Below are positions 23,063-41,870 of a stretch of 64,000 nucleotides of DNA, one piece after another (position 1 is the first letter of the stretch; each line of letters opens with the position of its first letter). Origin of the DNA: Candidatus Tectimicrobiota bacterium (GTDB lineage: Bacteria; JACPUC01); NCBI GenBank assembly GCA_016192455.1, contig JACPUC010000007.1, positions 68,720 to 132,719 on the forward strand, read 5' to 3'. Below the pieces are notes generated by a model that ran no database searches, was not told where the DNA came from, and saw nothing but the letters and a program-made list of their open reading frames with translations. Both the position numbers and the translations under genes were made by a program.

Positions 23063-23137
23063 CGTTCTTCCATTCAGCGCCGGAGCGAGGGGGCGGATCA
23101 GCGCGTTCGCCGCCGCAGAGGGTGGCGAGCCGTCAAC

Positions 23138-24190: not shown

Positions 24191-24309
24191 GGCAGGAATC
24201 GTCTCGTTCCCCCATCCACGACGGTCCGTGGTCAGCGCGGGGCGGTCACCCCTCCCCCTTGAGCGCGGGAAAGAGGCTCCGAGCCACCCTCGCGATGTCT
24301 GAAAATCGT

Positions 24310-24318
24310 TGATATGAT
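24310..24318 (+). promoter_or_regulatory. candidate extended -10 element TGaTATGAT in hemE/hemH divergent region
   Basis: Read directly. Lies 177 nt upstream of the hemH ATG. Confidence 0.25.
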
Positions 24319-24494
24319 AGAGCCTTCCTCTTCTGGTGTCAACGTTCGGCGCGGCGTCGGCGAGGGGAGGAGCGGCGCTTCATCGCGCGGCGTCGACAAA
24401 TTGCTTCGAAAACTCTACATTTGAGGGGATGAACCCGCAGCCCGCGGCTAGAGCGGCGCGCTGGCACACCGCAAAGGAGGGAGGAAGCGCGTGC

Positions 24495-25733: not shown

Positions 25734-26096
25734 CTACCGCCCCAACAGACCAGCCGTGACGCTCGACTCCAACATGGCGAAATCGACCGGCTTCGTCAGG
25801 TAGTCCACCGCGCCAAGGTGCATGCCCGTCTCGCCCAGCTCCCGCTGGTGGACCGCCGTCAGGATGATCACGGCGATACCGGGACGCATCGACTTCAGGT
25901 GCTTCAGCGTTTCCATCCCGTCCATAGTGGGCATCCGGAGATCGAGCAGGACCAGGTCGGGTGGCTCCTGGCCGACCTTCTCCAGCGCCTCCTCTCCGCT
26001 CAAGGCGTAGTCGACGGTATGGCCAAGCGTCACCAGGTACGACTGCAGCACCCGACAGGCATCCACCTCATCGTCAACCACCAAGATCCGGCCCAT
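25734..26096 (-). CDS. stand-alone CheY-like response-regulator receiver protein
   Basis: From Met MGRILVVDDE. Has the phospho-acceptor Asp in LVLLDLRMP, the conserved T (ILTA) and K (LTKP). No output domain. Confidence 0.8.
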   Translation of the reverse strand: MGRILVVDDEVDACRVLQSYLVTLGHTVDYALSGEEALEKVGQEPPDLVLLDLRMPTMDGMETLKHLKSMRPGIAVIILTAVHQRELGETGMHLGAVDYLTKPVDFAMLESSVTAGLLGR

Positions 26097-26924
26097 TGCG
26101 ACATCTTTCTCCCATCGAAACCCCTCGCTCACGAAACTTCCCGGTCCATGCTCTTCACCGGTGAAAGCGCCCTCGTGCATGGCCGTCTCCCCCTCCCTGA
26201 CAGTGACCAGGCGCCCTGAAAGAGATGCGTGCGGCGCCTGGCCCTCATCCTTGCCGCAGGCGTGTGGCTGCGCGCCCGCATGACCCCTCCGGGCCCCTCG
26301 GGGCCTCTCCCCGAGGATGAAGCCGGAGGCTCAGCTCTTCCGCCGTAAACTGACGCACCGAGGCAAGGAATCTTTCTCTAGGGTGAACGATTCTTCGTCG
26401 ATTGGCAAGCTGATCCTTAGCATCTTGCCCTCCGCCTCGACGGGTGGTGAGCGGCGCCGTGGCGCTACGGCGCCATCGCCGCGAGCGTCGTCGCCGCAAG
26501 CGCGACCTTGCAGCCAGGGCATAGCCCCAAGGCGCTCACCGCCGCCCTGGGCGGGCCGTCTCCCGCCGGGCTTCCTCCCACCACTCCCCTCACTTTGCCA
26601 GTGAACCCGTCGAGTCTCCTTCCCCTCCTGCCGCCCGGCATGTTGACCGTCGGACCCAACGTGTTGCGCCTTCACTCCAGGCAACCCTCCCGGTAGGTGG
26701 CGGGAAGCCACATCTACGTGGGGGCGCAGGGGCACCATCCGCCCCCGGCGCAGCGGCTGGGCCGTGCGCGCCCCACCCCGCCGCGGTCGGCAAGAAACCG
26801 CCGCCTCTCCCCCGCCGTGGCCCAACTATTGCTTGTAGAACACACAAAGTGAAGGTTTCTTGACTTCCCAGTCGAGACGCCTTACCCCAGGAGTGGCACA
26901 CTGCGCAACGGAGAGGAGCCGACG

Positions 26925-27908
26925 GTGTTACGCCTCGACGAGAGCCCCATCATCCTCTTCGGCGGCAAGGGGGGCGTCGGAAAGACAACCTGCGCCTGCG
27001 CCGCCGCGGTCCATCTCGCCAGCCGAGGCAAGAAGACCCTCGTTATCTCAACCGACCCAGCTCATTCCCTGGGCGATAGCCTGGGGCAACGTCTGGGGGA
27101 TGAGATGACGCAGATCACGGCGCTGCCCTCCCTCACTGCTCTCGAGCTGAACGCGGCGAAGTCCCTGCGGGAGTTCAAGGAAGAGTATGAGGAGGAGATT
27201 CTCTCCCTCCTGCGCACGGGAAGCTACCTCGATGATGCCGATCTCGCCGAGATTCTCTCCCTGAGCATCCCCGGCTTGGATGAGGTGATGGGGTTCAAAC
27301 GCATCACCGATCTCCTCGCCAGCGCCCGAGCTGACCACGTTCTCATCGATACCGCCCCGACCGGCCATGCCCTGCGCCTCCTCATGATGCCGGAGCTTGC
27401 CGACCAGTGGGTAAAGGTGCTCGCAAGCCTGCGCTGGAAGTACCGCCGGATGGTCACGCAGCTCGTCGGCGGGGTGGCGGCCGAGCGCGGCGACGACTTC
27501 CTCCTTACTCTGAAGCGCAGCGTGAAACGCATGCGCACCTGGCTGCGGGATCGACGGCGCACCCAGTTTGTCGTCGTCACCATCCCGGAGTACCTGGCGG
27601 TACGCGAGACCCAACACCTCGTCGAGGAGCTGCGCGCCGCCCACGTGCCGCTGCGGCACCTGATCATCAACCACGTGCGGGCCGGCGGCGCCCTTCCCTG
27701 TCCGTTCTGCGCCGAGGCGCGCATGGCCCAGCAACCGTACATCGCCGCGCTGCGCGCCGCCTATCCCGACCTCGCGGTAACCCTCATGATCCAGGAGCCG
27801 CGCGAGGTGCGCGGCCTCAATGCCTTGCGCTGTGTGGGGCGGCAGCTCTTCGACCGGCTTGAACCTCGCGGCCTCAGCGAGCACCTCCTGCACGCACCGG
27901 CGGGCTAG
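26925..27908 (+). CDS. ArsA/Get3-family P-loop ATPase with CxxC motif
   Basis: GTG start after GGAGAGGAG RBS. Deviant Walker A GGKGGVGKTT, the ArsA/Get3 signature DTAPTGHALRLL, and a C-terminal CPFC pair as in the Get3 zinc-bridged dimer. Confidence 0.8.
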   Translation: MLRLDESPIILFGGKGGVGKTTCACAAAVHLASRGKKTLVISTDPAHSLGDSLGQRLGDEMTQITALPSLTALELNAAKSLREFKEEYEEEILSLLRTGSYLDDADLAEILSLSIPGLDEVMGFKRITDLLASARADHVLIDTAPTGHALRLLMMPELADQWVKVLASLRWKYRRMVTQLVGGVAAERGDDFLLTLKRSVKRMRTWLRDRRRTQFVVVTIPEYLAVRETQHLVEELRAAHVPLRHLIINHVRAGGALPCPFCAEARMAQQPYIAALRAAYPDLAVTLMIQEPREVRGLNALRCVGRQLFDRLEPRGLSEHLLHAPAG

Positions 27909-28009
27909 CGACGCGGCGCGGAGGCGCGAGCGGCGCAAAAGAGATGGCGCGGCAAGCGCGCCAGAGAGCCTGGAGATGCCAGCGAGCGGCGGAGGCGGAG
28001 GAAGGAATC

Positions 28010-29059
28010 ATGGGAGTGCGGCTCTACTGCATTGTTGAGAAGGCCACGGCGCCGAGCAGCGCGGTGCCGCAGCTTCCGGAGCTGGCGCTCGGCAGCATTC
28101 AGTACCGGGACCTCCTGGCGCTGACGAGTCGTGAGCTGCAGGCGGGGCTTGCCGATCTCGACGAGGCGGCGCTGCGCGAGCAGCTTGCGCGCCACCACCG
28201 GGTGAATGAGGCGGCGGCGAAGCTTGGGGCGGTGGTGCCGCTGCGGTTCGGCACCATCGCCGCCAACCACCGCGAGGTGCGGGCCCTCCTGAAGCACGGC
28301 TACATCGAGCTGCGCAGGCTGCTTGAAAAAGTGCGCGATCGGGTGGAGGTGGTGGTGCACGGGCGCCTCGACCGCGCGCTCATCCTGCACCAGATCGCCC
28401 GCCAGGATGGCGAGGTGCAGCGCCTGCGCGCCGCCCCCCCGAGCACCGATCCCGAGACCTGCCGCGAGCAGCAGATCGCCCTCGGGAAGGCGGTGTACGA
28501 GGCCATCCATGCCTATGAACGCGGCTGCATCGCGGAGGTGCGCGCACGGCTTGGCAGGCATGCGGAGGAGGCTGCGGAGGGACGCTTGCTGGCGGAGGAG
28601 ATGGTGCTGAACCTCGGCTTCCTGGTCAGGAGCTTGGAAATCCCGGCATTCCGCGCCGCCCTCGCGGAGCTCAACCGCTCGTTCGCGGGCAACCTCATCT
28701 TGACCTGGCACGGTCCCTTGCCGCCTTACAGCTTCGCGAGCCTGCAGTTCCACCACGTCGAGTTCGAGCGCATCGACGCGGCGCGGCGGAATCTGGGCCT
28801 CGACGAAGAGGCGACGACGGCGGAGATCACCACCGCCTACCACGACCTGGCGCGCCGCTTCCATCCCGACGGCGCGGGCAATGGCGAGGGCGCCGAGACC
28901 TTCAAGGAGCTGAGCGCGGCGCGGGCGATTTTGCTGCGTTACTGCCAGAACTACCGCTACTCATTCCGACGCGAGGCCGTGGCGCGCAGCGTCATCGTCC
29001 GGGCCACCGACGCGGCGGCGGACTACACGCGGAGTCTCACCTATGTCGAAGCCTCCTGA
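28010..29059 (+). CDS. GvpL/GvpF-family gas vesicle protein fused to C-terminal DnaJ J-domain
   Basis: N-terminus GVRLYCIV, NLGFLV and WHGPLPPYSF are GvpF/L hallmarks. The C-terminal ~60 aa LGLDEEATTAEITTAYHDLARRFHPDG...FKELSAARAIL carry the HPD tripeptide and helix pattern of a J-domain. Confidence 0.75.
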   Translation: MGVRLYCIVEKATAPSSAVPQLPELALGSIQYRDLLALTSRELQAGLADLDEAALREQLARHHRVNEAAAKLGAVVPLRFGTIAANHREVRALLKHGYIELRRLLEKVRDRVEVVVHGRLDRALILHQIARQDGEVQRLRAAPPSTDPETCREQQIALGKAVYEAIHAYERGCIAEVRARLGRHAEEAAEGRLLAEEMVLNLGFLVRSLEIPAFRAALAELNRSFAGNLILTWHGPLPPYSFASLQFHHVEFERIDAARRNLGLDEEATTAEITTAYHDLARRFHPDGAGNGEGAETFKELSAARAILLRYCQNYRYSFRREAVARSVIVRATDAAADYTRSLTYVEAS

Positions 29060-29828
29060 GGCCGGCGTCTACTGCTACGGCATCTGCCGCAGCTCAACCC
29101 CGCGGAGCTTCGGCCCCCTCGGCATCGGCGCGCACGGTGACGAGGTGCGGACCCTCGCCGTCGGGGAGATCGCCGCGGTGGTGAGCTGCTCGCCGGCCGG
29201 CACGTACCGCGTCTCGCGCCAGAACGTCCTGGCCCATCAGCAAGTCCTCGAGGCCGTCATGCCGCACTCGCCGGTGCTGCCGATCCGTTTCAGCACCGTC
29301 GCCGACTCCGCCGCGCAGGTCATCGCCGTTCTGGAATCCCGCTACGAGGAATTCGACCACCTCCTCGAACGCATGACGGGGAAGCATGAGCTGGGCGTGA
29401 AGGCGATCTACCGCGAGGCCGTCATCTATGCGGAGCTCGTCGAGGCTGAGCCACGCATTCAGCGCCTGAAACAACGGCTCACGGGAACGCGTCTCGAGGA
29501 GAGCTACTACCCGCGTCTCGAGCTGGGTCGCCTCGTGGAGGCCGCCCTGGCGGCGAAGCGCGAGCGGGAGGGGGCGGCTCTCCTCGCCCTCCTGGCGCCG
29601 CATGCGGTGGAGCACCGACAGGGGCGGCTGTTGCACGAGCGGATGCTCCTAAATGCGGCCTTCCTTGTCGAGAAGGCCCGGGAACGCTCCTTCGATGAGG
29701 TCGTGGAGGAGCTGTCGCGGCGACACGACGCGCGCATAGAGCTGCGGTACGTGGGCCCCATGCCGCCCTACAACTTCGTGAACCTCACGATCAACCTGCG
29801 CGCCGAGCGTGCGCCCTCGCCGCGCTAG
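29043..29828 (+). CDS. gvpF: GvpF/GvpL-family gas vesicle protein
   Basis: GVYCYGI..., LNAAFLV, YVGPMPPYNF. 261 aa. Confidence 0.75.
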   Translation: MSKPPEAGVYCYGICRSSTPRSFGPLGIGAHGDEVRTLAVGEIAAVVSCSPAGTYRVSRQNVLAHQQVLEAVMPHSPVLPIRFSTVADSAAQVIAVLESRYEEFDHLLERMTGKHELGVKAIYREAVIYAELVEAEPRIQRLKQRLTGTRLEESYYPRLELGRLVEAALAAKREREGAALLALLAPHAVEHRQGRLLHERMLLNAAFLVEKARERSFDEVVEELSRRHDARIELRYVGPMPPYNFVNLTINLRAERAPSPR

Positions 29829-29859
29829 GTTGCCTGAAGCAGCCTGGGGGAGAACTTCC

Positions 29860-30090
29860 ATGTTCCTTCTCGACGATCTTCTCCTGCTCCCTTTCCGCGG
29901 CTTGCTCGGCATCCTGAAGGAGATTCAGCGGCTCGCCGAGCAGGAGACCTCCGATCGCGCCAGGCTGCACGAGAAGTTGCTCTACGCGCAGCTCCAGTTT
30001 GAGCTCGATGAAATCACCGAGGCCGAGTACCAGCAGCGCGAGGAGGAGATTCTCCAGCGCTTGCAGCTCCTGGAAGAGGTTGAGCGCTGA
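29860..30090 (+). CDS. gvpG: gas vesicle protein GvpG
   Basis: From Met MFLLDDLLLLPFRGLLGILKEI... with an acidic coiled-coil tail, as in GvpG (~80 aa). A GGGGGAG RBS is upstream. Confidence 0.6.
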   Translation: MFLLDDLLLLPFRGLLGILKEIQRLAEQETSDRARLHEKLLYAQLQFELDEITEAEYQQREEEILQRLQLLEEVER

Positions 30091-30455
30091 TGCCGAGCAG
30101 ACGACCCAGAACCTCGGAACGGCGAGGCGGCGACAACGGCGACCTTGAGGGCGCGGCTCCTCCTCAAGGTTGCGCTGAGACGAGAGGACACCCTGCCATG
30201 CAGCTCAGAGAGGCGGGCGAGGCGGTGCGGCGGGCGCTCTCGGAGGTGCTCGCCAAGCGGGGCGAGATCGTCACCCTGCGCAGGACCGAGGAGGGGTGGG
30301 AGTCGCACGTCGAGGTAGTGGAAGAGAACGAGTACCTCAAGGCCCTCGGCAAGCATGTCGTGGATCGGAACTACTACGTGATCGAGCTCAGCGAGGCGTT
30401 GGAGGTGGTCGCCTACGACCGCCTGGCGAAGAAGCCCCCGGCACGAGAAGAGTAA
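30090..30455 (+). CDS. gvpO: gas vesicle protein GvpO
   Basis: ATG overlaps the gvpG stop (TGATG). The core LRRTEEGWESHVEVVEENEY resembles the GvpO motif LRRSDDGWRVTMDVVE. An alternative start is ATG 30198. Confidence 0.6.
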   Translation: MPSRRPRTSERRGGDNGDLEGAAPPQGCAETRGHPAMQLREAGEAVRRALSEVLAKRGEIVTLRRTEEGWESHVEVVEENEYLKALGKHVVDRNYYVIELSEALEVVAYDRLAKKPPAREE

Positions 30456-30458
30456 CGC

Positions 30459-31391
30459 ATGGCTCCCCTGCAGACCCCTGATACTCCCGCGCGCGGCCTC
30501 TACGCCTACGCTGTCCTCGAGCCCCACCGCCAACCGCCGCCTGGGGGGCCGCTTGGGGTCATCGGCATCGACGGCGCGAGCCCGGTGGAATTCGTCGGCC
30601 ATGGAGCCGTCCTGGCCGCGGTGAGCGAGGTGGCACTCGAGGAGTTCACGGGCGAGCGTCTGAAGGCCAATCTCCAGGAGATGCGCTGGCTCTCCCGCAG
30701 GGTTAGCGCCCACGAGGCCGTCGTGGAGCGCCTGATGGCATGGGGAACCCTGGCGCCCATGAAGTTCGGCACCCTCTTCTCGAGTCTCGCCGCGCTGCGG
30801 CGGTTTCTGCGCGCCTCCCATGAGGATCTGCGCGACACCCTGGCGGCGCTGCGCCTGCATGAGGAGTGGGGCGTGAAGGTCTACGGCCGTAGCCCAGCGG
30901 TGCGGACGCTGCGTCGCCGGCTGGAGGACGACCAGGAGCGCTTAGGCACGGAGCGGAGCGAGGCGGCGTCCCTGCCTGCCGGGCGCGCCTACTTCCAGCG
31001 CAAGCAAACCGAATGGGCGCTGCTGCGGGAGAGCGACGCGACCATGGAAGCCCTGGCGCGGCATATCCACGCCCTGCTCGGCGGCCAGGCGTCGCGCAGC
31101 GCGATCAGCCCCGCGCCGGGCGGCTTTCCCCTCGCTGCCGCGCCAGCGGAGCGCGGCGCGCAGGACCGTGGCGCAGAGGAGGGCGGCCCACGGGGGGGGA
31201 CGAGGGAGAGCTGGGAACTGCTCCTCAATGCAGCCTACCTCGTGCCGCTCGGTAACCGGCAGCGCTTCCTGGCCTGCGCCGCCTGGTCAAACGACCAGCA
31301 CCAGGCGCCTGGCCTGCGTCTGGCGATCACCGGCCCGTGGCCACCCTATCATTTCACCCCTTCATGCTGGAAGCGAGGTGCCCGTGTTTGA
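30459..31391 (+). CDS. gvpL: GvpL/GvpF-family gas vesicle protein
   Basis: GLYAYAV..., LNAAYLV, ITGPWPPYHF. 310 aa. Confidence 0.75.
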   Translation: MAPLQTPDTPARGLYAYAVLEPHRQPPPGGPLGVIGIDGASPVEFVGHGAVLAAVSEVALEEFTGERLKANLQEMRWLSRRVSAHEAVVERLMAWGTLAPMKFGTLFSSLAALRRFLRASHEDLRDTLAALRLHEEWGVKVYGRSPAVRTLRRRLEDDQERLGTERSEAASLPAGRAYFQRKQTEWALLRESDATMEALARHIHALLGGQASRSAISPAPGGFPLAAAPAERGAQDRGAEEGGPRGGTRESWELLLNAAYLVPLGNRQRFLACAAWSNDQHQAPGLRLAITGPWPPYHFTPSCWKRGARV

Positions 31392-31608
31392 CGACCCCAT
31401 CGTTGAGAACGAGCAGACATCGATGCGGCGCGTAAAACTCGTCGAGGTCCTCGACCGGCTCCTCAACCGCGGGGTGTACCTGGAGGGAGACCTGACGCTG
31501 GCGGTTGCCAACATCGACCTCATCTACGTCGGGCTGCGCGTCCTCGTCAGCTCAATTGAGACGGCGCAGCGGATCGCCTCCCGGAGCGGCAGTGGAGCCT
31601 GCGAGTGA
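31378..31608 (+). CDS. GvpA-family small gas vesicle protein (GvpS/GvpM/GvpJ-like)
   Basis: In-frame inside ORF 31168..31608. LVEVLDRLLNRGVYLEGDLTLAVANIDLIYVGLRVLVSSIETAQR matches the GvpA core. Start is GTG 31378 (after GAAGCGAGG) or ATG 31423. Confidence 0.75.
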   Translation: MPVFDDPIVENEQTSMRRVKLVEVLDRLLNRGVYLEGDLTLAVANIDLIYVGLRVLVSSIETAQRIASRSGSGACE

Positions 31609-31621
31609 GCTTGGAGGAAGC

Positions 31622-32380
31622 ATGAGCGGCGAACTCTACGTCTACGGCATCGTCGACAGCCGCTGCGGCCTGGCGATCGCGGGGCGCGGCATGGCCGGAG
31701 GCTCCTTGCAGCTCCTGGCCTGGCATGAGATCGGCGCCGTGGTCAGCAGCGGCGGCTCCTTCCCTCTGCGCTATGAGACCGAACACGTCCTGCACCACGA
31801 GCGCGTCCTGGAGCGGCTCATGAAGGGCCATAGCGTGCTTCCCTGTCGCTTCGACTTGCGCCTGCGGGACGAGGAGGAGGTGGCGGCGCTCCTGCAAGGG
31901 AAGTATGCCGCATTCCGGGCAAACTTGCGGCGCGTCGCGGACACGCAGGAGTGGTGCGTGAGAGCGCTGTGGGACCCCGAGGAGCTGGCCGCCTGGGAAG
32001 AGCTGTCGCCCCATGGAAGTTCTGAACGCATCAACGTCGATGTCTCGGATTCGCCTGACGGCGGCGCGGCCTACCTGCTCCGCAAGTGCCAGGCCTGGCG
32101 GCGGGAGGCGCTCCTGCATGACTTCGCCGAGACCCTCATCGAGGCGGTCCACGAGCCTCTCCAACGTCATGCCCAGGAGAGCCTCACGCGCAAGTGCCTG
32201 AGCGAGCGACTCATTCTCGCCGCCGCCTATCTGGTGCCGCGATGCCGGGCTGCCGAGTTTGTGGCCTGCTTCCGCCGCCAACGTCTGGCGTTCGCGCATC
32301 TCCAGTTTCTCCTTAGCGGACCCTGGCCGCCCAGCAGCTTCATCGACGAAGAGCTGCGGGGGCCGCTCATGGTCACCTGA
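31622..32380 (+). CDS. gvpF: GvpF/GvpL-family gas vesicle protein
   Basis: ATG after GGAGGAAG RBS. ELYVYGIV, LAAAYLV, LSGPWPPSSF. Confidence 0.75.
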   Translation: MSGELYVYGIVDSRCGLAIAGRGMAGGSLQLLAWHEIGAVVSSGGSFPLRYETEHVLHHERVLERLMKGHSVLPCRFDLRLRDEEEVAALLQGKYAAFRANLRRVADTQEWCVRALWDPEELAAWEELSPHGSSERINVDVSDSPDGGAAYLLRKCQAWRREALLHDFAETLIEAVHEPLQRHAQESLTRKCLSERLILAAAYLVPRCRAAEFVACFRRQRLAFAHLQFLLSGPWPPSSFIDEELRGPLMVT

Positions 32381-32432
32381 GACGGCTCTGCCGAGAAGGG
32401 CGCCGCGGCTGAAAAGGTAGAATGGGGGGAAC

Positions 32433-32774
32433 ATGTTTAACGAGTCGACCATTCACGGTGAGCGACTGGAGGACTTCGCCGCTGAGATGGAAAGGATCGC
32501 CAAGCCTCGCGCGCGGCGCATCAATGCAGATCCAGAGCGCGCCGAACAAGGGCTGGCCAAGCTGGTGCTGACACTCATCGAGCTGCTGCGCCAGCTCCTC
32601 GAACGGCAGGCGGTGCGGCGGGTCGAGGCCGGCAGCCTGAGCGCCGATGAGGTGGAGCGGCTGGGTCTGACGCTCATGAAGCTCGAGGCGAAGATGGAAG
32701 AGCTGAAATCCCTCTTCGGTCTGCATGATCAGGATCTCAACCTGAACCTGGGGCCGTTCGGCGATCTCCTCTAG
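32433..32774 (+). CDS. gvpK: gas vesicle protein GvpK
   Basis: GLAKLVLTLIELLRQLLERQAVRRVEAGSLSADEVERLG is the conserved GvpK core. Confidence 0.7.
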   Translation: MFNESTIHGERLEDFAAEMERIAKPRARRINADPERAEQGLAKLVLTLIELLRQLLERQAVRRVEAGSLSADEVERLGLTLMKLEAKMEELKSLFGLHDQDLNLNLGPFGDLL

Positions 32775-32867
32775 CCTGGCGGCGCACCTTCCCAGGTTGG
32801 CGCGCCGGCGCGAGAGAAACCCCTGAGGAAGGCGGCAGCGGCCCGAAGAAAGGAGTCAGGCTGGCAT

Positions 32868-32918
32868 CGAGATAAAGCATAACTTGCTCTTGGATAAGGT
32901 ACGAAACATACTTTTGTT
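32868..32918. promoter_or_regulatory. AT-rich island in otherwise GC-rich intergenic DNA (putative promoter/IHF-type region)
   Basis: GATAAAGCATAACTTGCTCTTGGATAAGGTACGAAACATACTTTTGTT lies 160 nt upstream of the strong AAGGAGGG RBS of the gene at 33081. Confidence 0.3.
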
Positions 32919-33080
32919 CTCGGCGCTGACCTGTCAGGCGATGTCGAGCGACCCCCAGGGGACGCGCGCAGGCCAGGAGGCGACGGTGCGGCGCCAGGCG
33001 TGGGAGCAGGCGGGCGCGCGGATGAGCGCGACAGATCACGCCCGCGGCGAAATCAGGAAGCTGAGTAAGGAGGGTCAACG

Positions 33081-33473
33081 ATGTCGTGGAGCACAGAGAT
33101 GCAGGCACTTCGGATGGAGATTGAGTCTTCGTTCAAGGATCGACGCCAGATGCTCCTTGGCCTGCAGCGGCGGGAGTACGCGCGCAAGGAGAGCTGCGCT
33201 GATTTCATGACGGCGCTGCACACGGCGCAGGGCGAACAGACGCGGGCGCTGTGGGCAATGCTCGGTGAGAGCCGGCGCCAGGGCCGGCAGCGTTTCAACA
33301 CGCTCATGGAGGGCTGCAAGGCGAAGCGGCGCGAACACCGCGAAATCCTCGCGGCCCTGTTCCGTTCCAGTCGCGCCAGCCTTGCGGCGCTGCGCCGCGC
33401 CTTGGAGCAGAGCGGTGAGGAGTGGCGCGCCATGCGGAGCAGAATTGCCGCGGGTGTCGGCGCGCCGCACTAG
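33081..33473 (+). CDS. hypothetical basic helical protein inside gvp cluster
   Basis: 130 aa, Arg/Glu-rich, no recognisable family. Strong RBS. Confidence 0.5.
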   Translation: MSWSTEMQALRMEIESSFKDRRQMLLGLQRREYARKESCADFMTALHTAQGEQTRALWAMLGESRRQGRQRFNTLMEGCKAKRREHREILAALFRSSRASLAALRRALEQSGEEWRAMRSRIAAGVGAPH

Positions 33474-33708
33474 GAGCTGTCGCCGGCCGTTGTGAAGTCG
33501 TGCTCCTCGACCGGGCAGGTGGAGGCGCGAGCAACAACCCGCCCTACAGTAAGCAGGGCGAGCAGCATGGGGAGAGCCACCGGTAGCGCCTCCGCTGCCG
33601 CTGCCGTGGGAGAGTCCGAAGGAGCGGCGCAGCCGACGACCGACGCCGCGCGCTCAGCGCCGTCGCCGGCTGCGCGACGTTGCGACAGAGCAGCGCGCCG
33701 TTCGCCCG

Positions 33709-33735
33709 CGTGGTTCCAGACTCGTGGTTCCAGAC
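33709..33735. repeat. tandem direct repeat CGTGGTTCCAGAC x2 (14-bp period)
   Basis: Read directly, ~110 nt upstream of the gvpJ-like start. A candidate operator. Confidence 0.4.
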
Positions 33736-33843
33736 CACGGGACCCGACACGGCAGGCGAAGCCGACAGGGGGTGTTCCCGGCCCGCGCGGGGGGTGATCT
33801 CAACGCCCACACCACGCGCCCCTGGCGCCCACCAAGGAGCTGC

Positions 33844-34152
33844 ATGGAAACCGCGCCAATAACGAGCATCTCGCACTCGACCGGGGCGGTGACGCTCGCG
33901 GACATCTTGGAGCGAGTCCTCGACAAGGGAATCGTCATTGCCGGCGACATCAGCATCTCGCTGGCTGACGTGCAGCTCCTGACGATCAGGATTCGGCTGC
34001 TCATCGCCTCTGTCGACAAGGCGCGGGAGATGGGCATCTCCTGGTGGGAAGGCGACGGCTTCCTCTCCTCGAAGGCGCGCGAGATCGAGGCGGAGAACCG
34101 CGACTTGAAGGCGCGTCTCGCCCGGCTCGAGGAGGGTTGCAACGCCTCCTGA
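33844..34152 (+). CDS. gvpJ: GvpA-family gas vesicle protein with C-terminal extension (GvpJ-like)
   Basis: ATG after AAGGAG RBS. LADILERVLDKGIVIAGDISISLADVQLLTIRIRLLIASVDKAREMGI is the GvpA/J core. A ~40-aa coiled-coil tail follows. Confidence 0.8.
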   Translation: METAPITSISHSTGAVTLADILERVLDKGIVIAGDISISLADVQLLTIRIRLLIASVDKAREMGISWWEGDGFLSSKAREIEAENRDLKARLARLEEGCNAS

Positions 34153-34344
34153 GCAGGGGCGTTGGAGGTTCCTCCCGCGGCGGGAGGAGCAGGTCCTCCT
34201 CGGCGGGGCGAGGGGCGTGGTGAGAGGTCGGCAGGAGCGGCGCGGAGCACACACAGCCGGCGCGGTAGGCCGGCAGGAGGCAGCAAGACGACACGGCTGC
34301 CGCTGTCTTCACGAGGCAGGAGTCAAGCCAGGGAGAGCGTCACG

Positions 34345-35499
34345 ATGGCGATCGAGGAGTTTCCCACACTCTTGGCGCCGCGGCAGGCGGATGGGTTTGT
34401 CGAGACGGCGTACGTCCGCGACCTCAGCACGCGCAGTCTCGCTGCCATTGAAGCCGGTTTCCCCATTCACTTCCGCGGCGTCTCCGGCAGCGGCAAGACG
34501 ACGCTGGCGATGCACGTGGCCTCCAAGGTCGGCAGGCCGGTGGTCCTCTTGCACGGCAACGAAGAGCTGAGCACGTCGGAGCTGATCGGCGGCGAACAGG
34601 GCTACCGCTTCCGCCGCGTGGTCGACCGCTTCATTCACTCGGTGCTGAAGACCGAGGAAGACCTCACGAAGCACTGGGTCGACAACCGGCTCACCATCGC
34701 CTGCAAGCACGGCTTCACCCTCGTTTACGACGAGTTCAGCCGCTCGCGCCCCGAGGCCAACAACATCCTTCTCTCCATCCTGCAGGAGAAGATTCTCGAC
34801 CTGCCGATGCTGCGAGGCCACGAGCACTACCTGAAGGTGCACCCCAACTTCACCGCCATCTTCACCAGCAACCCCGAGGACTATGCCGGCGTCTTCAAGA
34901 CGCAGGACGCCTTGCGTGACCGCATGATCACCTTCGACCTCGACTTCTTCGACCGCGCCACGGAGGCGGCGATCAGCCAGGCCAAGTCCGGCCTGCCGCT
35001 CGGCGCGGTGGAACGCATCGTCGACCTCGTGCAAGGGTTTCGACAAAGCCAGCAGTACGACTTCGCCCCCACGGTGCGGGCCTGCATCATGATCGCCAAG
35101 CTGACGCGCGTGCGCGGCGCCTCGGCGGCCGCCAACGACCCGGTGTTCCGCCAAATCTGCGCCGACGTGCTCATTTCGGAAACGAGCCGGGTGGGTCTGC
35201 ACGGCAAGAGATTGAAGGTCGATCAGATGCTGGCGCGCCTGATCGACAGGCACTGCGCGGCGGCGCCGCAGGCGAGCCAAGCGAGGAAGAGCTCTCCAGC
35301 CTCTCTCGGTCCCGAGGCGCAGAGCATGGCGGCGAACGGCCCCTCCTCGAGCAGTAGCGGTGGCTTGCAGGAGAACCGGAACCCGACCCGAGGCGCGGGG
35401 GCAAACGCACCAGCGGGACTCTGGCAGCGGCGACAGGGTGAGCCGGTTGCCCCAGCCTCGGCAGGCAATCAGGCGCCCGGCACGCACCGCCACGTTTAG
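34345..35499 (+). CDS. gvpN: gas vesicle AAA+ ATPase GvpN (CbbQ/NorQ family)
   Basis: ATG after AGGGAGAG. Walker A FRGVSGSGKTT, Walker B LVYDEFSRS, and AAA sensor regions. Typical GvpN size. Confidence 0.85.
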   Translation: MAIEEFPTLLAPRQADGFVETAYVRDLSTRSLAAIEAGFPIHFRGVSGSGKTTLAMHVASKVGRPVVLLHGNEELSTSELIGGEQGYRFRRVVDRFIHSVLKTEEDLTKHWVDNRLTIACKHGFTLVYDEFSRSRPEANNILLSILQEKILDLPMLRGHEHYLKVHPNFTAIFTSNPEDYAGVFKTQDALRDRMITFDLDFFDRATEAAISQAKSGLPLGAVERIVDLVQGFRQSQQYDFAPTVRACIMIAKLTRVRGASAAANDPVFRQICADVLISETSRVGLHGKRLKVDQMLARLIDRHCAAAPQASQARKSSPASLGPEAQSMAANGPSSSSSGGLQENRNPTRGAGANAPAGLWQRRQGEPVAPASAGNQAPGTHRHV

Positions 35500-35523
35500 G
35501 AAACCAGCAGGAGAACGTTCACC

Positions 35524-35829
35524 ATGAAGGGCCTCGCGGATCTCAAAACCGCTCGACACGTGAAGATGCGGGGTATGCCGCAGGTCGCGCAGTCTCCGCC
35601 CATCGAACTCTTCATGCTCGGCAAGCAGAAGGAGCGCCTGGAGAAGGAAGAGCAGCAGCTCCTGAAAGCCTTGCAGCGCACGCAGCACACCCTGCGACAC
35701 CTGGCGCAGCGCCTGGAGAGCCTGCGGCAGGAGATCGCCAGGGAAGGCGGCGGCGCCGCGAACGCCGAGCCAGCAGCAGGAGAGCCGCACGGCACGCGCG
35801 GCTGGCAGACGATGCCGTTAACCTACTGA
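35524..35829 (+). CDS. small coiled-coil protein (paralog of 37204..37401)
   Basis: [39 protein letters not shown] is a heptad-rich helix. It shares a QKER-L...L motif with the ORF at 37204. Confidence 0.4.
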
Positions 35830-35995
35830 GCCGTTGCGGAGCCTTGCACTCTCGAAGCGCAGGCAGGCGTCGGAGCGTAACCAAGACGAACGAGCACGCC
35901 GCACGGAGTGCGTGCGGAAACGTGGCAAAGGCATCGGTGTGGGGAGGCCACACAACTCTCAGGAGACTGAGAACCACCTTTGGAGGAATCGAATC

Positions 35996-36211
35996 ATGGC
36001 AGTCGAAAAAGCAATCGGGTCATCGAGCCTGGTCGAAGTGGTCGACCGCATCCTGGACAAGGGCATCGTCATCGACGCCTGGGTGAGAGTCTCCCTCGTG
36101 GGGATCGAGCTCCTGGCAATCGAAGCCCGCGTCGTCGTCGCGGGTGTCGACACGTATCTGAAGTACGCCGAGGCCATCGGCCTGACGGCCACGGCCGCCG
36201 CGCCCGCGTAG
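35996..36211 (+). CDS. gvpA: major gas vesicle structural protein GvpA
   Basis: [63 protein letters not shown] is nearly identical to canonical cyanobacterial GvpA. A GGAGG RBS lies 9 nt upstream. Confidence 0.9.
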
Positions 36212-36258
36212 CGGGTGGCCCATCTTCCTGGACGCCGCCCGCGGGCGCAGGCGAGGGG

Positions 36259-36338
36259 GGGTTAGGCACTGCGGTTTCCCCCACCGATTCCCAGGTTCGG
36301 GTCCACTTTGCAGGATCAACCCGAGCACTGCCTAACCC
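36259..36338. repeat. long-range inverted repeat GGGTTAGGCACTGC / GCACTGCCTAACCC (14-bp arms, 1 mismatch, 52-nt loop) downstream of gvpA
   Basis: Read directly 48 nt after the gvpA stop. No T-tract follows. Possible terminator or processing structure. Confidence 0.45.
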
Positions 36339-36401
36339 GTTATCGAAGCGCTCCGCGGGGGCGTTGAGGTCGAGGCGCGGTTCTGCTGCCGCCGCCAACG
36401 G

Positions 36402-36426
36402 GGAACATGTTCCACGTGGAACATTC
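36402..36426. promoter_or_regulatory. overlapping perfect palindromes GGAACATGTTCC and GTTCCACGTGGAAC (three alternating GGAAC half-sites)
   Basis: Read directly in the gvpA-gvpH intergenic region. A candidate protein-binding site. Confidence 0.4.
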
Positions 36427-36587
36427 GCCCGGCGGCGGCAGGCCCGCCGCGTCCTAAAGGTCCGGTCGGGCGGCAGGCTGCCGTTCCCGGAGCCGACGGT
36501 CCGCCCCGGGCGGCCGGCATGGACGCCGGCGCCTCATTCGTTCATCCCGCACCGATCCAGGTGCCATGGCAAGAAGGAGACCGGCTG

Positions 36588-37139
36588 ATGAGTCGGCGCA
36601 AGACGAGCGGCCCAGCGGGGCTCGGTGGCGTCTTCAAGGGTATCGCCTCGTTCATCGACCTCCTCGTTGACCTCACCGAGGAGGGTGCAGGCAAAGAGGA
36701 GGACAGCACCGAGGAGGGCAAGGGGATCAAGCGGTCGCGGGAGTTCCGCGGCGCCACGGCGAGCGGCAAAGAGTTTCGCGGCGTGTACGGGTTTTCGGTG
36801 CGGATGGGACTGGGCGGGCCGGAGGTGGAGACGTTCGGCAACCTCCACCCCGCCGACGAGGGCGCCGTGGTGGAGGAACGCCGCGAGCCCCTGGTCGACG
36901 TCTTCGATGAGGGGCAAAGCCTGCAGGTGGTGGTGGAGCTGCCGGGGGTGGAGGAGGAGAGCATTGATGTTCGCCTCGCCGACGATGTCCTCATCCTCTC
37001 CACCGAGCGCGGCGCCCGCAAGTACTACAAGGAGGTGCTGCTGCCCGCGCCGGTGGAGGCGCAGAGCCTGGTCCGCACCTACCGCAACGGCATCTTCGAG
37101 GTGCGCCTGCAGAAGCGAGCCGAGCCGCCGCGGGAGTGA
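36588..37139 (+). CDS. Hsp20/alpha-crystallin family small heat-shock protein (GvpH-like)
   Basis: ATG after AAGGAGA. Alpha-crystallin domain VDVFDEGQSLQVVVELPGVEEESIDVRLADDVLILSTERG...GIFEVRL. Confidence 0.8.
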   Translation: MSRRKTSGPAGLGGVFKGIASFIDLLVDLTEEGAGKEEDSTEEGKGIKRSREFRGATASGKEFRGVYGFSVRMGLGGPEVETFGNLHPADEGAVVEERREPLVDVFDEGQSLQVVVELPGVEEESIDVRLADDVLILSTERGARKYYKEVLLPAPVEAQSLVRTYRNGIFEVRLQKRAEPPRE

Positions 37140-37203
37140 GCGGCCTCGCTATCGTTCCTCATCCCGCCTCTTCTCGGCGCGCCGATCTCTTGGGAGGAGA
37201 ATT

Positions 37204-37401
37204 GTGAACGCAGCCCCTTCGGAGCTCCTCGCGCGGCAACTCCGCCGCACCAGGGCCAAGCTGATGAAGAAGATCCAGGATCTCCAGGAGAGGCAGCGCA
37301 CGCTGCCCGCGAAGTGGCTCGAACGGCTCGGCCAGAAAGAGCGTGAGCTGCGCGCCTTGGCGGAGCAGCTCGACGAGCTGCTGCACCGTCTCTCCCGTTA
37401 G
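37204..37401 (+). CDS. small coiled-coil protein (paralog of 35524..35829)
   Basis: GTG after GGGAGGAG RBS. LMKKIQDLQERQRTL...GQKERELRALAEQLDELLHRL. Confidence 0.35.
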   Translation: MNAAPSELLARQLRRTRAKLMKKIQDLQERQRTLPAKWLERLGQKERELRALAEQLDELLHRLSR

Positions 37402-37613: not shown

Positions 37614-39779
37614 TCACGTTGACCGATCACTAGCGCCACGCCGCCAAGGGCGCAGCGCCTCGTCGAAGTGGCGCCCGGAGATGCGCAAGGAGCCAGCCCC
37701 GTCATCGGCGGCGTTGCGGCCGCGCAGGAATTCCCGCACGGCGCACATCCCGGCCTCGCGGCAGAGGGCCTCAATCTGCGCTCCCTGCCAACCGCTGGTG
37801 GCGAGGACCAGCGCCGCCAGATCGACATCGGCGCTTAGCGGCATGCGGCGGGTGTGCACCTCGAGAATCTCCCGCCGCCCCTCATCATCCAGGGGCCCCA
37901 CCTCGAGCTGCAGGTCGAAGCGCCCGGAGCGCAGCAGCGCCGGATCGACCATATCAATGCGGTTCGTGGTGGCCAGGACGATCACCCCCTTCTGGCTCTC
38001 GATGCCGTCAAGCTCGGTAAGGAGCTGGCTGACCACCCGCTCGGTGACGCCGGCGCTCTCGCCGTGCCCGCGCACCGGCGCCAGGGCGTCGATCTCATCG
38101 AAGAAGAGGATGCACGGCGCCGCCTGCCGGGCTTTGCGGAAGAGCTCCCGCACGCCCCGCTCCGCCTCGCCCACCCACTTGGAGATGAGCTCCGGCCCCT
38201 TCACGGAGATGAAGTTGATCTGGCACTCCGTGGCGACGGCCTTCGCCAGCAGGGTCTTGCCGCAGCCGGGAGGGCCGTAGATGAGGATGCCCTTCGGAGG
38301 GCGCAGGTGCGCCTCCTCGAACAGCCGCCGGTGGCGCAGCGGCCACTCGATGTTCTCCTGCAACCACTGTTTCGTCGCCGCCAGGCCACCCACATCGTCC
38401 CAGCTCACGTTCGGCACCTCAAGGGAGACCTCCCGCAAGCCCGAGGGCTCGACCTCCCGCAGGGCCGCCAGGAAGTCGTCGCGCCCCACCCGCAGATCGA
38501 GGAGCTCCTCGTAGGGGATGCGCTGGCTCTCAAAGTCGACCCGCGGCAGGAGGCGGCGCAGGGCCACCATGGCGGCTTCGCGGCAGAGGGCCTGGAGATC
38601 GGCGCCGACGAAGCCAAGGGTGAGCTGGGCGAACTCCTGCAGGTCCACCTCCTCGGAGAGCGGCATGCCGCGGGTGTGGATCTCGAGGATACGCTGGCGC
38701 CCGGTGGTGTCGGGCACGCCGATGACGAGCTCGCGGTCGAACCTCCCCGGGCGGCGCAGGGCCGGGTCGAGGGCGTTCGGGATGTTCGTGGCGCCGATCA
38801 CGATCACCTGGCCGCGCTCGCGCAGACCGTCCATGAGCGCTAGAAGCTGCGCCACGACGCGCTTCTCCACCTCGCCGATGGCCGTCTCCCGCTTCGGCGC
38901 GATGGCATCAATCTCATCCAGGAAGAGGATGCTGGGCGCCTGCTTGCTTGCCTCGTCGAAGAGCTTGCGCAGCTTCGCCTCGCTCTCGCCGTAGAACTTG
39001 TGGATGACCTCCGGCCCGTTGACCGCGAGGAAGTGGGCTTCGGTCTCGTGCGCCACGGCGCGGGCGATGAGGGTCTTGCCGCAGCCCGGCGGGCCGACCA
39101 GGAGCACGCCCTTGGGGGCGTCGATGCCAAGGCGCTCGAAGACCTGCGGGTGCTTCAACGGCAGCTCGATCATCTCGCGGATGCGCTGCACCTCCCGCCC
39201 CAGGCCGCCGATGTCGTCATACGTCGTCTTTGCCGGGCTGGGACGCGCTCCTTTCTCGTGGGCGATACTGAGAACGGTGGTGGGGTGCACCACCACGGCG
39301 CCGTCCGGGATCGTCTCGGCGACGAGGAAGTCATAGGAGCGCGCCCCGAAAAGGTTGGCCCGCACCGTATCCCCCCTGGTCACCGGCAGGCCCTCCATGA
39401 GGCGCACCAGGTAGCGGTGATCGCGCTCCGACAGGGGGCTGCGCAGAAGCGTGCGCGGGTTCAGCGTGATCTTGGCGGCGGCCTGGCAGGCGGTTTTCTC
39501 CACCAGCACCTTCTCGTCCAGCCCCACCTTGGCGTTGCCGCGCACCAGGCCATCGATCTGCACCAGGCGCTGGCCGCGCTCGGCGGCAAAGGCCGGCATC
39601 GCCTTCGCCACGGTCTGCTGCTTGCCCGTAATGCGCACGACATCGCCCACCGCCACATCGAGCTCCTTCATATCCGCCGGATCGAGGCGGGCGATGCCGC
39701 GGCCGACATCCTTGGAATGCGCCTCCACAACACGGAGCTGCAAGCTGGCCTGGGGTTCGGCCTCGGGCGCCATACTCAT
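37614..39779 (-). CDS. Cdc48/VCP/VAT-like double AAA+ ATPase
   Basis: N-terminal double-psi/Cdc48 domain, then two AAA modules, each with Walker A GPPGCGKT, Walker B DEID and second-region-of-homology motifs. Convergent with the gvp operon. Confidence 0.85.
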   Translation of the reverse strand: MSMAPEAEPQASLQLRVVEAHSKDVGRGIARLDPADMKELDVAVGDVVRITGKQQTVAKAMPAFAAERGQRLVQIDGLVRGNAKVGLDEKVLVEKTACQAAAKITLNPRTLLRSPLSERDHRYLVRLMEGLPVTRGDTVRANLFGARSYDFLVAETIPDGAVVVHPTTVLSIAHEKGARPSPAKTTYDDIGGLGREVQRIREMIELPLKHPQVFERLGIDAPKGVLLVGPPGCGKTLIARAVAHETEAHFLAVNGPEVIHKFYGESEAKLRKLFDEASKQAPSILFLDEIDAIAPKRETAIGEVEKRVVAQLLALMDGLRERGQVIVIGATNIPNALDPALRRPGRFDRELVIGVPDTTGRQRILEIHTRGMPLSEEVDLQEFAQLTLGFVGADLQALCREAAMVALRRLLPRVDFESQRIPYEELLDLRVGRDDFLAALREVEPSGLREVSLEVPNVSWDDVGGLAATKQWLQENIEWPLRHRRLFEEAHLRPPKGILIYGPPGCGKTLLAKAVATECQINFISVKGPELISKWVGEAERGVRELFRKARQAAPCILFFDEIDALAPVRGHGESAGVTERVVSQLLTELDGIESQKGVIVLATTNRIDMVDPALLRSGRFDLQLEVGPLDDEGRREILEVHTRRMPLSADVDLAALVLATSGWQGAQIEALCREAGMCAVREFLRGRNAADDGAGSLRISGRHFDEALRPWRRGASDRST

Positions 39780-39915
39780 CTCCTTTCGCGGTACTCCGCT
39801 CCACCTGCCGAGCTGTCCTGGAATCAACAGCCGAACGGCCGGCTCGCGCCCGCGACACGGGGAGGTGCAGCGAGGCGAGTCGCGCTCCGGCAGCGGCCGG
39901 CGCGCTCGCCGCGGT

Positions 39916-41818: not shown

Positions 41819-41870
41819 GGCTGTCTCAGGTCCTTGCCAGGTTGCGAAGAGCTTCCGGGCCCACCCGAAG

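Follow-up and report, generated by a model that had tools for sequence, protein, structure and literature searches.

What part a Get3-like ATPase, a Cdc48 unfoldase, a J domain and a small heat-shock protein (sHsp) play beside gas-vesicle genes is the question raised by a 64,000-nt stretch of DNA from a Candidatus Tectimicrobiota bacterium (contig JACPUC010000007.1, positions 68,720 to 132,719, assembly GCA_016192455.1), referred to here as the window. Gas vesicles are a classic prokaryotic organelle and a major platform for ultrasound and magnetic resonance imaging (MRI) reporter genes, and the model gas-vesicle (gvp) clusters, as far as reviews show, are not known to encode a Get3/ArsA ATPase, Cdc48, J domain or Hsp70. 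In the window, genes of this kind accompany a gvp cluster at positions 26925-37401 of the plus strand, and comparison with related loci indicates that the Get3-like, Cdc48, J-domain and Hsp20 genes very probably function in the gas-vesicle system.

The open reading frame (ORF) list and Pfam/NCBIfam profile searches gave 16 co-directional genes in this region, not the seventeen counted in a preliminary description of the window, encoding a single-domain Get3/ArsA-family ATPase (hereafter ArsA), a GvpL/F protein fused to a J domain (GvpL::J), three further GvpF/L paralogues, GvpG, GvpO, GvpK, GvpN, three GvpA-family proteins, an Hsp20 and three unclassified proteins (Table 1). The same genes and starts were returned by an independent gene caller on identical public contigs, and the codon-position GC was coding-like for all cluster ORFs, the unclassified ones included. 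Two NCBI proteins, MBI3090075.1 and MBI3090076.1, come from a Candidatus Tectomicrobia metagenome-assembled genome (MAG), the latter being the GvpL::J fusion. Profile searches recovered GvpA, and the essential accessory set (GvpF/L, GvpG, GvpJ together with an M/S-like protein, GvpK and GvpN) was entirely above the Pfam/NCBIfam cut-offs, with GvpO marginal; a GvpO homologue is found at the same place after GvpG in many related loci. The GvpS/M-like protein, recognized by Pfam, matched the NCBIfam GvpA, GvpJ and GvpM models only below threshold. By these profiles the region is a complete gvp cluster, as first described, with an ArsA gene at its head and all four of the reported GvpF/L paralogues.

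Other parts of that description required revision. A fourth GvpA-family gene was sought by six-frame phmmer of the whole window with the three paralogues as queries, which returned these three only. GvpA shares 58 of 71 residues (82%) with Anabaena GvpA (PDB 8GBS), and the B. megaterium shell protein is also close; this identity is high yet short of the near-identity to cyanobacterial GvpA that had been claimed. The cluster had further been thought to mix lineages, but the same set, including GvpO, GvpJ and GvpS, is standard in more than 100 related loci, and because this set is the standard content of a widespread cluster type, no chimerism is needed to explain it.

Related loci were collected from two anchors and annotated by six-frame phmmer with the window proteins. 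An ArsA alignment scan with one genome per species yielded 79 loci, and the Cdc48 anchor yielded the 80 closest metagenomic relatives (57-68% identical). The closest ArsA homologue was 91% identical and lay in the same synteny (contig L001), and the others, of ~312 aa, ranged down to ~50% identity across many phyla. The first two contexts obtained, from Nitrospinota and Nitrospirota MAGs, read GvpA..GvpN..Hsp20-ArsA-Cdc48-GvpL::DnaJ-GvpF-GvpG-..-GvpK on one strand, and a canonical one-strand order recurred in ~30 of the closest ArsA-anchored loci, consisting of a block GvpA-GvpN-x-GvpJ-Hsp20, then ArsA-Cdc48, then GvpL::J-F-F-G-O-F-S-F-K. The Hsp20-ArsA-Cdc48-GvpL::J arrangement was carried by Nitrospirota, Nitrospinota, Pirellulales and other Planctomycetes (Planctomycetota), Omnitrophota, Chlorobiaceae (including the isolate Chlorobium phaeovibrioides BrKhr17), many Bacteroidota, Cloacimonetes (Cloacimonadota), Spirochaetales (Spirochaetota) and Syntrophorhabdaceae, among others, with rearranged versions in Chloroflexota, Geobacteraceae, Gemmatimonas, Bryobacteraceae and an archaeon.

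Counting from either anchor gave a consistent association. Gvp genes were present in 60 of the 79 ArsA-anchored loci, the other 19 being short contigs or distant archaeal (mostly Asgard) Get3 genes. Among the 43 ArsA-anchored clusters with at least six gvp genes, Cdc48, Hsp20 and the J fusion were all present in 26, all absent in nine and mixed in eight. From the Cdc48 side, 65 of 80 loci had gvp genes in the fetched flanks, 12 more, mostly short contigs, had Hsp20 and/or ArsA alongside, and Cdc48 stood alone in three. Since gvp genes occur in 41 of the 43 Cdc48-anchored loci of at least 10 kb, and Cdc48 stands alone in only 3 of 80, this Cdc48 clade is, judged by its gene neighbourhoods, essentially dedicated to gvp clusters. 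Taken over both anchors, upwards of 100 loci, representing more than a dozen phyla, have the Get3/ArsA, J-fusion, Hsp20 and Cdc48 genes beside gvp genes, which bears out the earlier view that the Get3 and Cdc48 genes are more than juxtaposed.

The window departs from the canonical order in that its two gvp blocks are swapped and ArsA directly abuts GvpL::J. Cdc48 is inverted and set after Hsp20, preserving the Hsp20/Cdc48 neighbourhood in a convergent form, with 212 nt between the Cdc48 stop and the end of the last plus-strand ORF (37401), close to the 200 nt given previously. Because only 3 of the 102 gvp loci that contain Cdc48 have it on the opposite strand, the other 99 being co-directional, the window arrangement is the derived one.

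The ATPase that opens the cluster belongs to the Get3 side of its family. It scored 241 bits against the TIGR00345 GET3_arsA_TRC40 model (cut-off 135) and only 135.6 bits against the true-ArsA model TIGR04291 (cut-off 650). The P-loop GGKGGVGKTT (deviant Walker A) and the switch II sequence DTAPTGH are invariant in 31 homologues, as is a CPFC motif at residues 259-262, which is in register with the CXXC of Get3 proteins: CPQC in S. pombe (2WOO), CKMC in a metazoan (7RU9) and CSMC in G. intestinalis (7SPZ). An AlphaFold 2 model (mean predicted local distance difference test, pLDDT, 81.8) found archaeal TRC40/Get3 structures (3ZQ6, 3UG7) as best Foldseek matches, with TM scores of 0.74-0.80; on this model, ArsA has a predicted Get3 fold with an alpha-helical client-binding subdomain. 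An arsenical-pump ArsA was considered and rejected, since the window protein is a single domain of 327 aa as opposed to two halves totalling ~580 aa and is far under the TIGR04291 cut-off. None of arsB, acr3, arsD and arsR was found among the annotated flanking ORFs. ArsA proteins of related loci take two forms: the single-domain form adjoins Cdc48 in 44 cases, to which two proteins of intermediate length can be added, whereas the two-domain form (at least 550 aa) stands beside GvpG in 16 cases, elsewhere in nine and next to Cdc48 never.

Candidate clients of the ATPase can be named from hydrophobicity. Across the cluster proteins, 19-residue segments that reach a Kyte-Doolittle value of 1.7 or more are confined to GvpA, GvpS, GvpJ and the N-terminus of GvpG (residues 1-19, +1.70), which makes GvpA, GvpS, GvpJ and the GvpG N-terminus plausible clients of ArsA. 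No gene resembling a Get1/2 receptor was found in the cluster.

Cdc48 has the CDC48_N, CDC48_2 and two AAA domains in Pfam, and aligned end to end with Thermoplasma VAT (5G4F) at 728 bits, although its start codon is uncertain between 39773 and 39827. Both rings retain Walker A and B motifs, and the pore loops read KFYGESE (aromatic) in D1 and KWVGEAE in D2. Across 114 gvp-linked Cdc48 homologues, the Walker motifs, arginine fingers and D1 pore-loop tyrosine are ~100% conserved, and the pore loops are predicted to be competent for threading, as in VAT. The window protein ends in ...GASDRST and bears no HbYX tail, and the C-termini of the ~40 of 114 homologues that were inspected are variable and polar, also without HbYX, so that this Cdc48 probably acts without a proteasome. 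An anti-phage reading of Cdc48 and ArsA was also tried and rejected, because PADLOC returned only generic AAA-domain matches (IetA, TRIP13) and no match for ArsA.

The third component is the J domain. Pfam GvpL_GvpF and DnaJ were recovered in a single ORF of the window, in keeping with the fusion reported earlier; the J domain scored 38.8 bits against PF00226 (cut-off 27.8) and its HPD motif is intact. With an iterated hidden Markov model (HMM) of the J domain, 74 related loci were found to encode the GvpF/L::J fusion, each one retaining HPD, and the fusion mostly lies directly 3' of Cdc48. A word-indexed protein search for GvpL::J returned only four matches, since the family is too divergent for such a search. 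Full-length Hsp70/DnaK genes are present in 17 related clusters (for example L096:5384-7228, L090:7117-8949 and L046:2853-4883), typically in the order GvpA-DnaK-Hsp20-(Hsp20)-Cdc48 or -ArsA and with Pfam HSP70 scores of 700-790 bits. These in-cluster Hsp70 genes offer the strongest comparative argument that the J domain may engage Hsp70 on gvp-related clients. No Hsp70 gene was found in the window, so the housekeeping DnaK would serve in the Tectomicrobia host.

The fourth component, the Hsp20, had been called GvpH-like. It passed Pfam HSP20 (23.5 against 20.8) and narrowly the NCBIfam archaeal Hsp20 model (140.3 against 140), which sustains the Hsp20 assignment, but it missed Pfam GvpH (PF05455; 18.8 against 22). 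Its N-terminus, encoded at 36588-36680, carries a conserved GLGG(V/L)FKGI..(F/L).DL motif, and the amphipathic N-terminal motif GLGGLFKGIxxLxDLAxxLxExG is common to 100 sHsp homologues adjoining Cdc48 or ArsA. This amphipathic motif, which is specific to sHsps that lie beside Cdc48 or ArsA, may be an adaptor or client-binding helix.

Taking these components together, we favour, with fair but by no means full confidence, a role in chaperoning and quality control on the assembly side, directed at the aggregation-prone GvpA-family proteins. In such a scheme, the sHsp and a homodimeric, zinc-clamped Get3-like ATPase would capture GvpA, GvpJ, GvpS and possibly the GvpG N-terminal helix after synthesis, and the ATP cycle of the Get3-like protein would release the hydrophobic subunits at the growing vesicle. 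The J domain on its GvpL/F scaffold would recruit and activate Hsp70 at the assembly site, the partner being the housekeeping DnaK in the Tectomicrobia genome and the cluster-encoded Hsp70 in the 17 related clusters. The VAT-like Cdc48 hexamer would draw shell subunits that are aggregated, wrongly inserted or in excess through its pore and pass them back to the holdases for error correction or disaggregation. By analogy, the sHsp, J-domain/Hsp70 and AAA+ components would correspond to the sHsp-Hsp70-ClpB disaggregase, Cdc48 taking the place of ClpB, and the pairing of Cdc48 with Get3 would parallel the extract-and-redeliver cycle of eukaryotic Msp1 and GET.

Several points weigh against this assembly-side role. 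The joint function assigned to the four proteins is deduced from genes and synteny; synteny shows a functional link and not the step that is served, and turnover or regulation would fit equally. The ArsA, Cdc48 and GvpN distance matrices of 33 clusters were correlated (r = 0.71-0.85, Mantel p ~5e-4), which is expected for any co-inherited genes and fits long co-inheritance, not proof of interaction. The helical subdomain of ArsA carries a conserved basic RWKYR motif, invariant in the aligned homologues, in place of an obviously Met-rich groove, and a C-terminal tail anchor was found in none of the cluster proteins, so the canonical Get3 client type is absent from the cluster, although such clients may be encoded elsewhere. 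For the Tectomicrobia host, represented by an uncultured MAG, gas vesicles are predicted from the genes. In addition, neither Cdc48 nor Get3 nor a J domain is needed for vesicle formation by the model clusters of Halobacterium, Anabaena, B. megaterium and Serratia, and the module is therefore not universally required.

A more far-reaching proposal, which we hold only tentatively, is that the most widespread class of bacterial gvp clusters has, from its ancestry onwards, required the proteostasis machine for gas-vesicle biogenesis. This machine would consist of an sHsp with a dedicated N-terminal helix, a single-domain Get3-like ATPase, a VAT-like Cdc48, a J domain on the GvpL scaffold and, in some lineages, a separate Hsp70, and would be built on a Cdc48/Get3-like extract-and-redeliver cycle. 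Cdc48 and the Get3-like ATPase would then cycle GvpA-family subunits at the protein-gas interface.

Gas-vesicle shells are extremely stable, and we know of no enzyme that dismantles them. Cdc48, with the sHsp as adaptor and the Get3-like ATPase and Hsp70 as acceptors, might mainly take apart mature or collapsed vesicles, thereby lowering buoyancy or recovering GvpA, and we consider this unlikely while giving it some weight. The Cdc48 family consists of segregases and unfoldases, the pore loops are intact, Hsp20 immediately precedes Cdc48 in 41 Cdc48-anchored loci, and the window Cdc48 is transcribed apart from the structural genes, behind regulators, which would make independent timing possible. 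However, in the 99 co-directional loci (of 102), Cdc48 is embedded among assembly genes, typically between ArsA and GvpL::J, and would thus be co-expressed with assembly; moreover, no protease is encoded alongside, and the HbYX tail is missing.

Through regulatory proteolysis or remodelling, the ATPases could instead set the levels at which Gvp regulators or the GvpF/L scaffolds are present rather than handle the shell proteins, much as GvpD controls GvpE in haloarchaea. The position of the window Cdc48 at the end of a kinase-response regulator-NtrC string is compatible with this idea, as is its location beside an NtrC homologue in L050, L110 and L134. Nevertheless, the main neighbours of Cdc48 are Hsp20, ArsA and GvpL::J and not regulators, and the J domain, the sHsp and the Hsp70s found within clusters belong to the classic repertoire of folding and holdase functions, which leaves regulation an improbable main function.

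Non-buoyant GvpA structures have been debated for the gvp clusters of soil actinomycetes. Pelodictyon luteolum and Polaribacter irgensii form gas vacuoles. That the present cluster builds or maintains a GvpA-based structure other than buoyant gas vesicles appears very improbable: the Tectomicrobia host is uncultured and no vesicles have been observed in it, and a GvpC homologue was not found in the window, but none of the essential gvp genes (A, F/L, G, J, K, N and one of M/S type) is missing, and Chlorobiaceae carry this cluster type too. Gvp clusters that include arsA and hsp20 are also recorded in Pelodictyon luteolum and Polaribacter irgensii (Castillo & Saier, PMC2963123).

Finally, it is scarcely credible that the genes are merely juxtaposed, ArsA serving arsenic resistance or housekeeping and Cdc48 acting as a general stress protein, since the co-location is kept in more than 100 loci of many phyla from either anchor, no ars genes lie nearby, the true-ArsA model is far under its cut-off and PADLOC gave generic AAA matches only, against which stand just the NCBI names ('ArsA family ATPase' and CDC48 family) and the opposite strand of the window Cdc48; chance juxtaposition and arsenic resistance appear effectively excluded.

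A PAS histidine kinase, a stand-alone receiver protein, an NtrC-type activator and Cdc48 are tightly packed and co-directional on the minus strand, with NtrC immediately upstream of Cdc48 and Cdc48 last, and are probably transcribed as one operon. Of the related loci, 22 contain an NtrC homologue, mostly immediately upstream of gvpA; PAS kinase homologues with scores above 400 bits adjoin related gvp clusters, and receiver homologues flank such clusters. Expression is probably under the control of the adjacent kinase, response regulator and NtrC-type activator. A sigma-54-like -24/-12 element, TGGCCCAACTATTGCT, upstream of arsA has one mismatch to TGGCAC-N5-TTGCW, but 13 of 100 shuffles match at least as often in the window; the element also occurs in L001, the contig of the 91% identical ArsA, where the whole intergenic region is 89% conserved, so its conservation there does not discriminate. 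No convincing sigma-54 site was found upstream of gvpA and no sigma-70-like site was found, and terminator-like sites were fewer than the shuffle expectation.

The genes on the plus strand are separated by four non-coding gaps of ~165 to 375 nt (32775-33080, 33474-33843, 35830-35995 and 36212-36587), the first two of which were found to lack a coding signature in third-position GC (GC3), and because of these gaps the cluster suggests several transcription units and not a single operon. The 376-nt gap between gvpA and hsp20 contains a nested inverted repeat, CTGCCGCCGCC...GGCGGCGGCAG, at 36386-36441 (+), inside which lies the near-perfect palindrome ATGTTCCACGTGGAACAT; the repeat may serve as an operator, an attenuator or a terminator-like element. 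Rfam at gathering thresholds gave no structured RNA in the window.

Three cluster genes fall outside the named gvp families. The 101-aa coiled-coil protein has no Pfam or NCBIfam family, but its homologues are present in 40 related loci, in 37 of them immediately 3' of GvpN, making it a candidate for an unnamed core gvp gene; by position only, its gene presumably sits where gvpV sits in Serratia and Anabaena. The 130-aa and 65-aa ORFs had no homologue in the 159 related loci, the former no Pfam/NCBIfam match and the latter no family match. Pfam searches found no GvpC homologue in the window, and one of these two ORFs might encode a shell-binding substitute.

Table 1. Positions (window numbering) and supporting evidence for genes and elements of the gvp cluster and its adjoining regulatory genes.
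Feature	Position	Strand	Evidence
Sigma-54-like -24/-12 element, TGGCCCAACTATTGCT	26818-26833	+	92 nt upstream of arsA; weak evidence
Single-domain Get3/TRC40/ArsA-family P-loop ATPase, 327 aa	26925-27908	+	Pfam ArsA_ATPase 7e-69
GvpL/GvpF paralogue with C-terminal J domain	28010-29059	+	Pfam GvpL_GvpF 1.7e-47 and DnaJ 1e-9
J domain of the GvpL/F fusion	about 28793-28933	+	HPD motif present
GvpF/L paralogue 2	29043-29828	+	Pfam GvpL_GvpF 4.7e-69
GvpG, 76 aa	29860-30090	+	Pfam GvpG 7.5e-16; hydrophobic N-terminal helix
GvpO-like protein, 85 aa	30198-30455	+	Pfam GvpO 25.8 bits, cut-off 25, marginal
GvpF/L paralogue 3	30459-31391	+	Pfam GvpL_GvpF 5.5e-49
GvpS/M-like GvpA-family protein, 74 aa	31384-31608	+	Pfam Gas_vesicle 1.9e-12
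GvpF/L paralogue 4	31622-32380	+	Pfam GvpL_GvpF 7.1e-49
GvpK	32433-32774	+	Pfam GvpK 1.2e-35
Helical Arg/Glu-rich protein, 130 aa, lineage-specific	33081-33473	+	Coding-like codon-position GC; gene call on public contigs
GvpJ-like GvpA-family protein, 102 aa	33844-34152	+	Pfam Gas_vesicle 1.4e-16
GvpN AAA+ ATPase	34345-35499	+	TIGR02640 gas_vesic_GvpN 332 bits, cut-off 266.8; Pfam AAA_5
Conserved coiled-coil protein after GvpN, 101 aa	35524-35829	+	Homologues in related loci
GvpA major shell protein, 71 aa	35996-36211	+	Pfam Gas_vesicle 3.7e-16, 59.4 bits, cut-off 25
Hsp20-type small heat-shock protein, alpha-crystallin domain	36588-37139	+	Pfam HSP20 (PF00011) 23.5, cut-off 20.8
Coiled-coil ORF, 65 aa, lineage-specific	37204-37401	+	Strong ribosome-binding site (GGGAGGAG), coding-like GC3
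Cdc48/VAT-type double-ring AAA+ unfoldase	37614-39827	-	TIGR01243 911 bits, cut-off 802.65
NtrC-type sigma-54-dependent response regulator	39916-41430	-	Pfam Response_reg, Sigma54_activat, HTH_8
Stand-alone response-regulator receiver protein	41390-41899	-	Pfam Response_reg 6e-21
PAS histidine kinase, at the head of the kinase-regulator-NtrC-Cdc48 string	41871-43361	-	ORF translation

The DNA on either side of the cluster and some of the related loci hold further features. Upstream, genes of late haem biosynthesis (protoporphyrinogen-oxidase-like, uroporphyrinogen decarboxylase and ferrochelatase) occupy 21602-25490 and are followed by a small response regulator at 25734-26180 (-), in a synteny shared with L001. 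Divergent from the regulator operon, an 1804-aa sensor histidine kinase with ~8 PAS and two GAF domains is encoded at 44036-49450 (+). A complete pair of Gabija anti-phage genes lies in a low-GC island at 12189-15789 (+): GajA (12189-14096) matched its PADLOC model over the full length with 755 bits, and GajB (13963-15789) scored 660 bits; the island's GC of 0.55-0.56 compares with ~0.67 in the flanks, and the island was probably acquired horizontally. Among the related loci, an actin-fold gene (Pfam Volactin) follows GvpL::J-GvpF in L003 (15174-16771) and also occurs in L105, L108, L157, L159 and L037, preceded in five of the six by a conserved 168-aa gene; this insertion hints that the cytoskeleton takes part in positioning or assembling vesicles. 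Large gvp clusters of the same type are also present in three bins that bear the label 'Patescibacteria group' (L016, L033 and L037); either these bins are mis-assigned or genomes so reduced have a capacity that was not expected of them.

Part of this gene content has been described before. Castillo & Saier (2010; PMC2963123) found homologues of arsA, together with hsp20, within gvp clusters from Chlorobi, Bacteroidetes, a Geobacter, cyanobacteria and an acidobacterium. In their proposal, the ATPase powers a step of biogenesis and Hsp20 serves as a chaperone; they called the gvp-linked ArsA a two-domain protein of ~600 aa and did not mention Cdc48, a J-domain fusion or Hsp70. The novelty claimed in the preliminary description thus does not extend to Get3/ArsA, whereas for Cdc48 and the J domain it stands as far as the searchable full-text literature goes: no paper linking Cdc48, J domains or Hsp70 to gvp clusters was found there, subscription-only papers not being covered. 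Likewise, a 2022 review of Gvp proteins (PMC9501494) mentions none of ArsA, Hsp20 and a Cdc48-type unfoldase. The word 'atypical', which had been applied to the chaperone suite, is apt relative to the four model systems but not among uncultured bacteria, where the layout is common. We conclude that a class of gvp cluster with an integral Get3-like ATPase, Cdc48, J domain, sHsp and sometimes Hsp70 is widespread and experimentally unstudied.

Published work gives an idea of the burden that such a module could relieve. GvpH prevents the aggregation of GvpM, and A/J/M-family proteins are bound by GvpF and GvpL (PMC9501494), while GvpA2 expressed alone in E. coli aggregates and causes proteotoxic stress, which limits heterologous expression (PMC12848028). 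Genome mining for acoustic reporters deliberately avoided clusters rich in non-gvp genes, and of 15 native clusters only 5 yielded vesicles in E. coli (PMC10344784). For the problem of keeping the very hydrophobic GvpA soluble and inserting it into the growing shell, the module provides a testable parts list for assembly and quality control, and its chaperone suite provides candidate helper genes for engineered vesicle production. It also offers a natural setting in which to study the functions of bacterial Cdc48 and Get3 homologues. If the tentative proposal of an ancestral, required machine is true, a Get3 homologue would have a non-membrane client class, and the failure of most native gvp clusters in heterologous hosts could be explained. 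For bacterial Cdc48 it would be, to our knowledge, the first defined physiological role.

Compared with the model clusters, namely Halobacterium p-vac (gvpACNO/DEFGHIJKLM), Anabaena (gvpACNJKFGVW), B. megaterium pNL29 and Serratia 39006 (gvpA1-gvrC), the window cluster has the core set of GvpA, GvpF/L, GvpG, GvpJ/M/S, GvpK, GvpN and GvpO in common and, like the haloarchaeal clusters with GvpH, an Hsp20-like protein, but it lacks GvpC and has four GvpF/L paralogues. The NtrC, kinase and receiver set presumably resembles the NtrC-type and kinase regulation by Serratia GvrA/B/C, for which orthology is only a candidate relationship. A J-domain protein dedicated to one cytoplasmic organelle has a precedent in TopJ, which is required for assembly of the Mycoplasma terminal organelle; the window J domain gave weak NCBIfam matches to that of TopJ, the similarity being confined to the J domain, with the rest of the protein and the organelle unrelated. 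The clusters of Castillo & Saier (PMC2963123) likewise have arsA and hsp20 inside gvp clusters without ars genes, but the window ATPase differs from their ArsA in being a single domain of 327 aa with a Get3-type CXXC, and it is the single-domain type that is paired with Cdc48.

The remaining comparisons concern the machinery itself. Window Cdc48 shares the N-D1-D2 architecture and aromatic D1 pore loop of archaeal VAT (5G4F), but it is bacterial, lies in an organelle gene cluster and lacks the HbYX proteasome-docking motif. The sHsp holdase, Hsp70-targeting J domain and pore-threading AAA+ hexamer recall the sHsp-Hsp70/J-protein-ClpB (Hsp104) system, from which the window set differs in that its AAA+ protein is of the Cdc48/VAT type, with an N domain and without the ClpB M-domain, and that its J domain is fused to a GvpL/F assembly factor and not to the client-binding body of DnaJ. 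With the GET/TRC40 pathway, the window ATPase has in common the predicted Get3 fold, P-loop, switch II and zinc-binding CXXC, as well as the pairing with an AAA+ extractase-type enzyme, which here is Cdc48 and not Msp1; Get1/2, Get4/5, Sgt2 and a tail-anchored client have no counterpart in the cluster, and the target would be a protein shell at the gas-water interface in place of a lipid bilayer.

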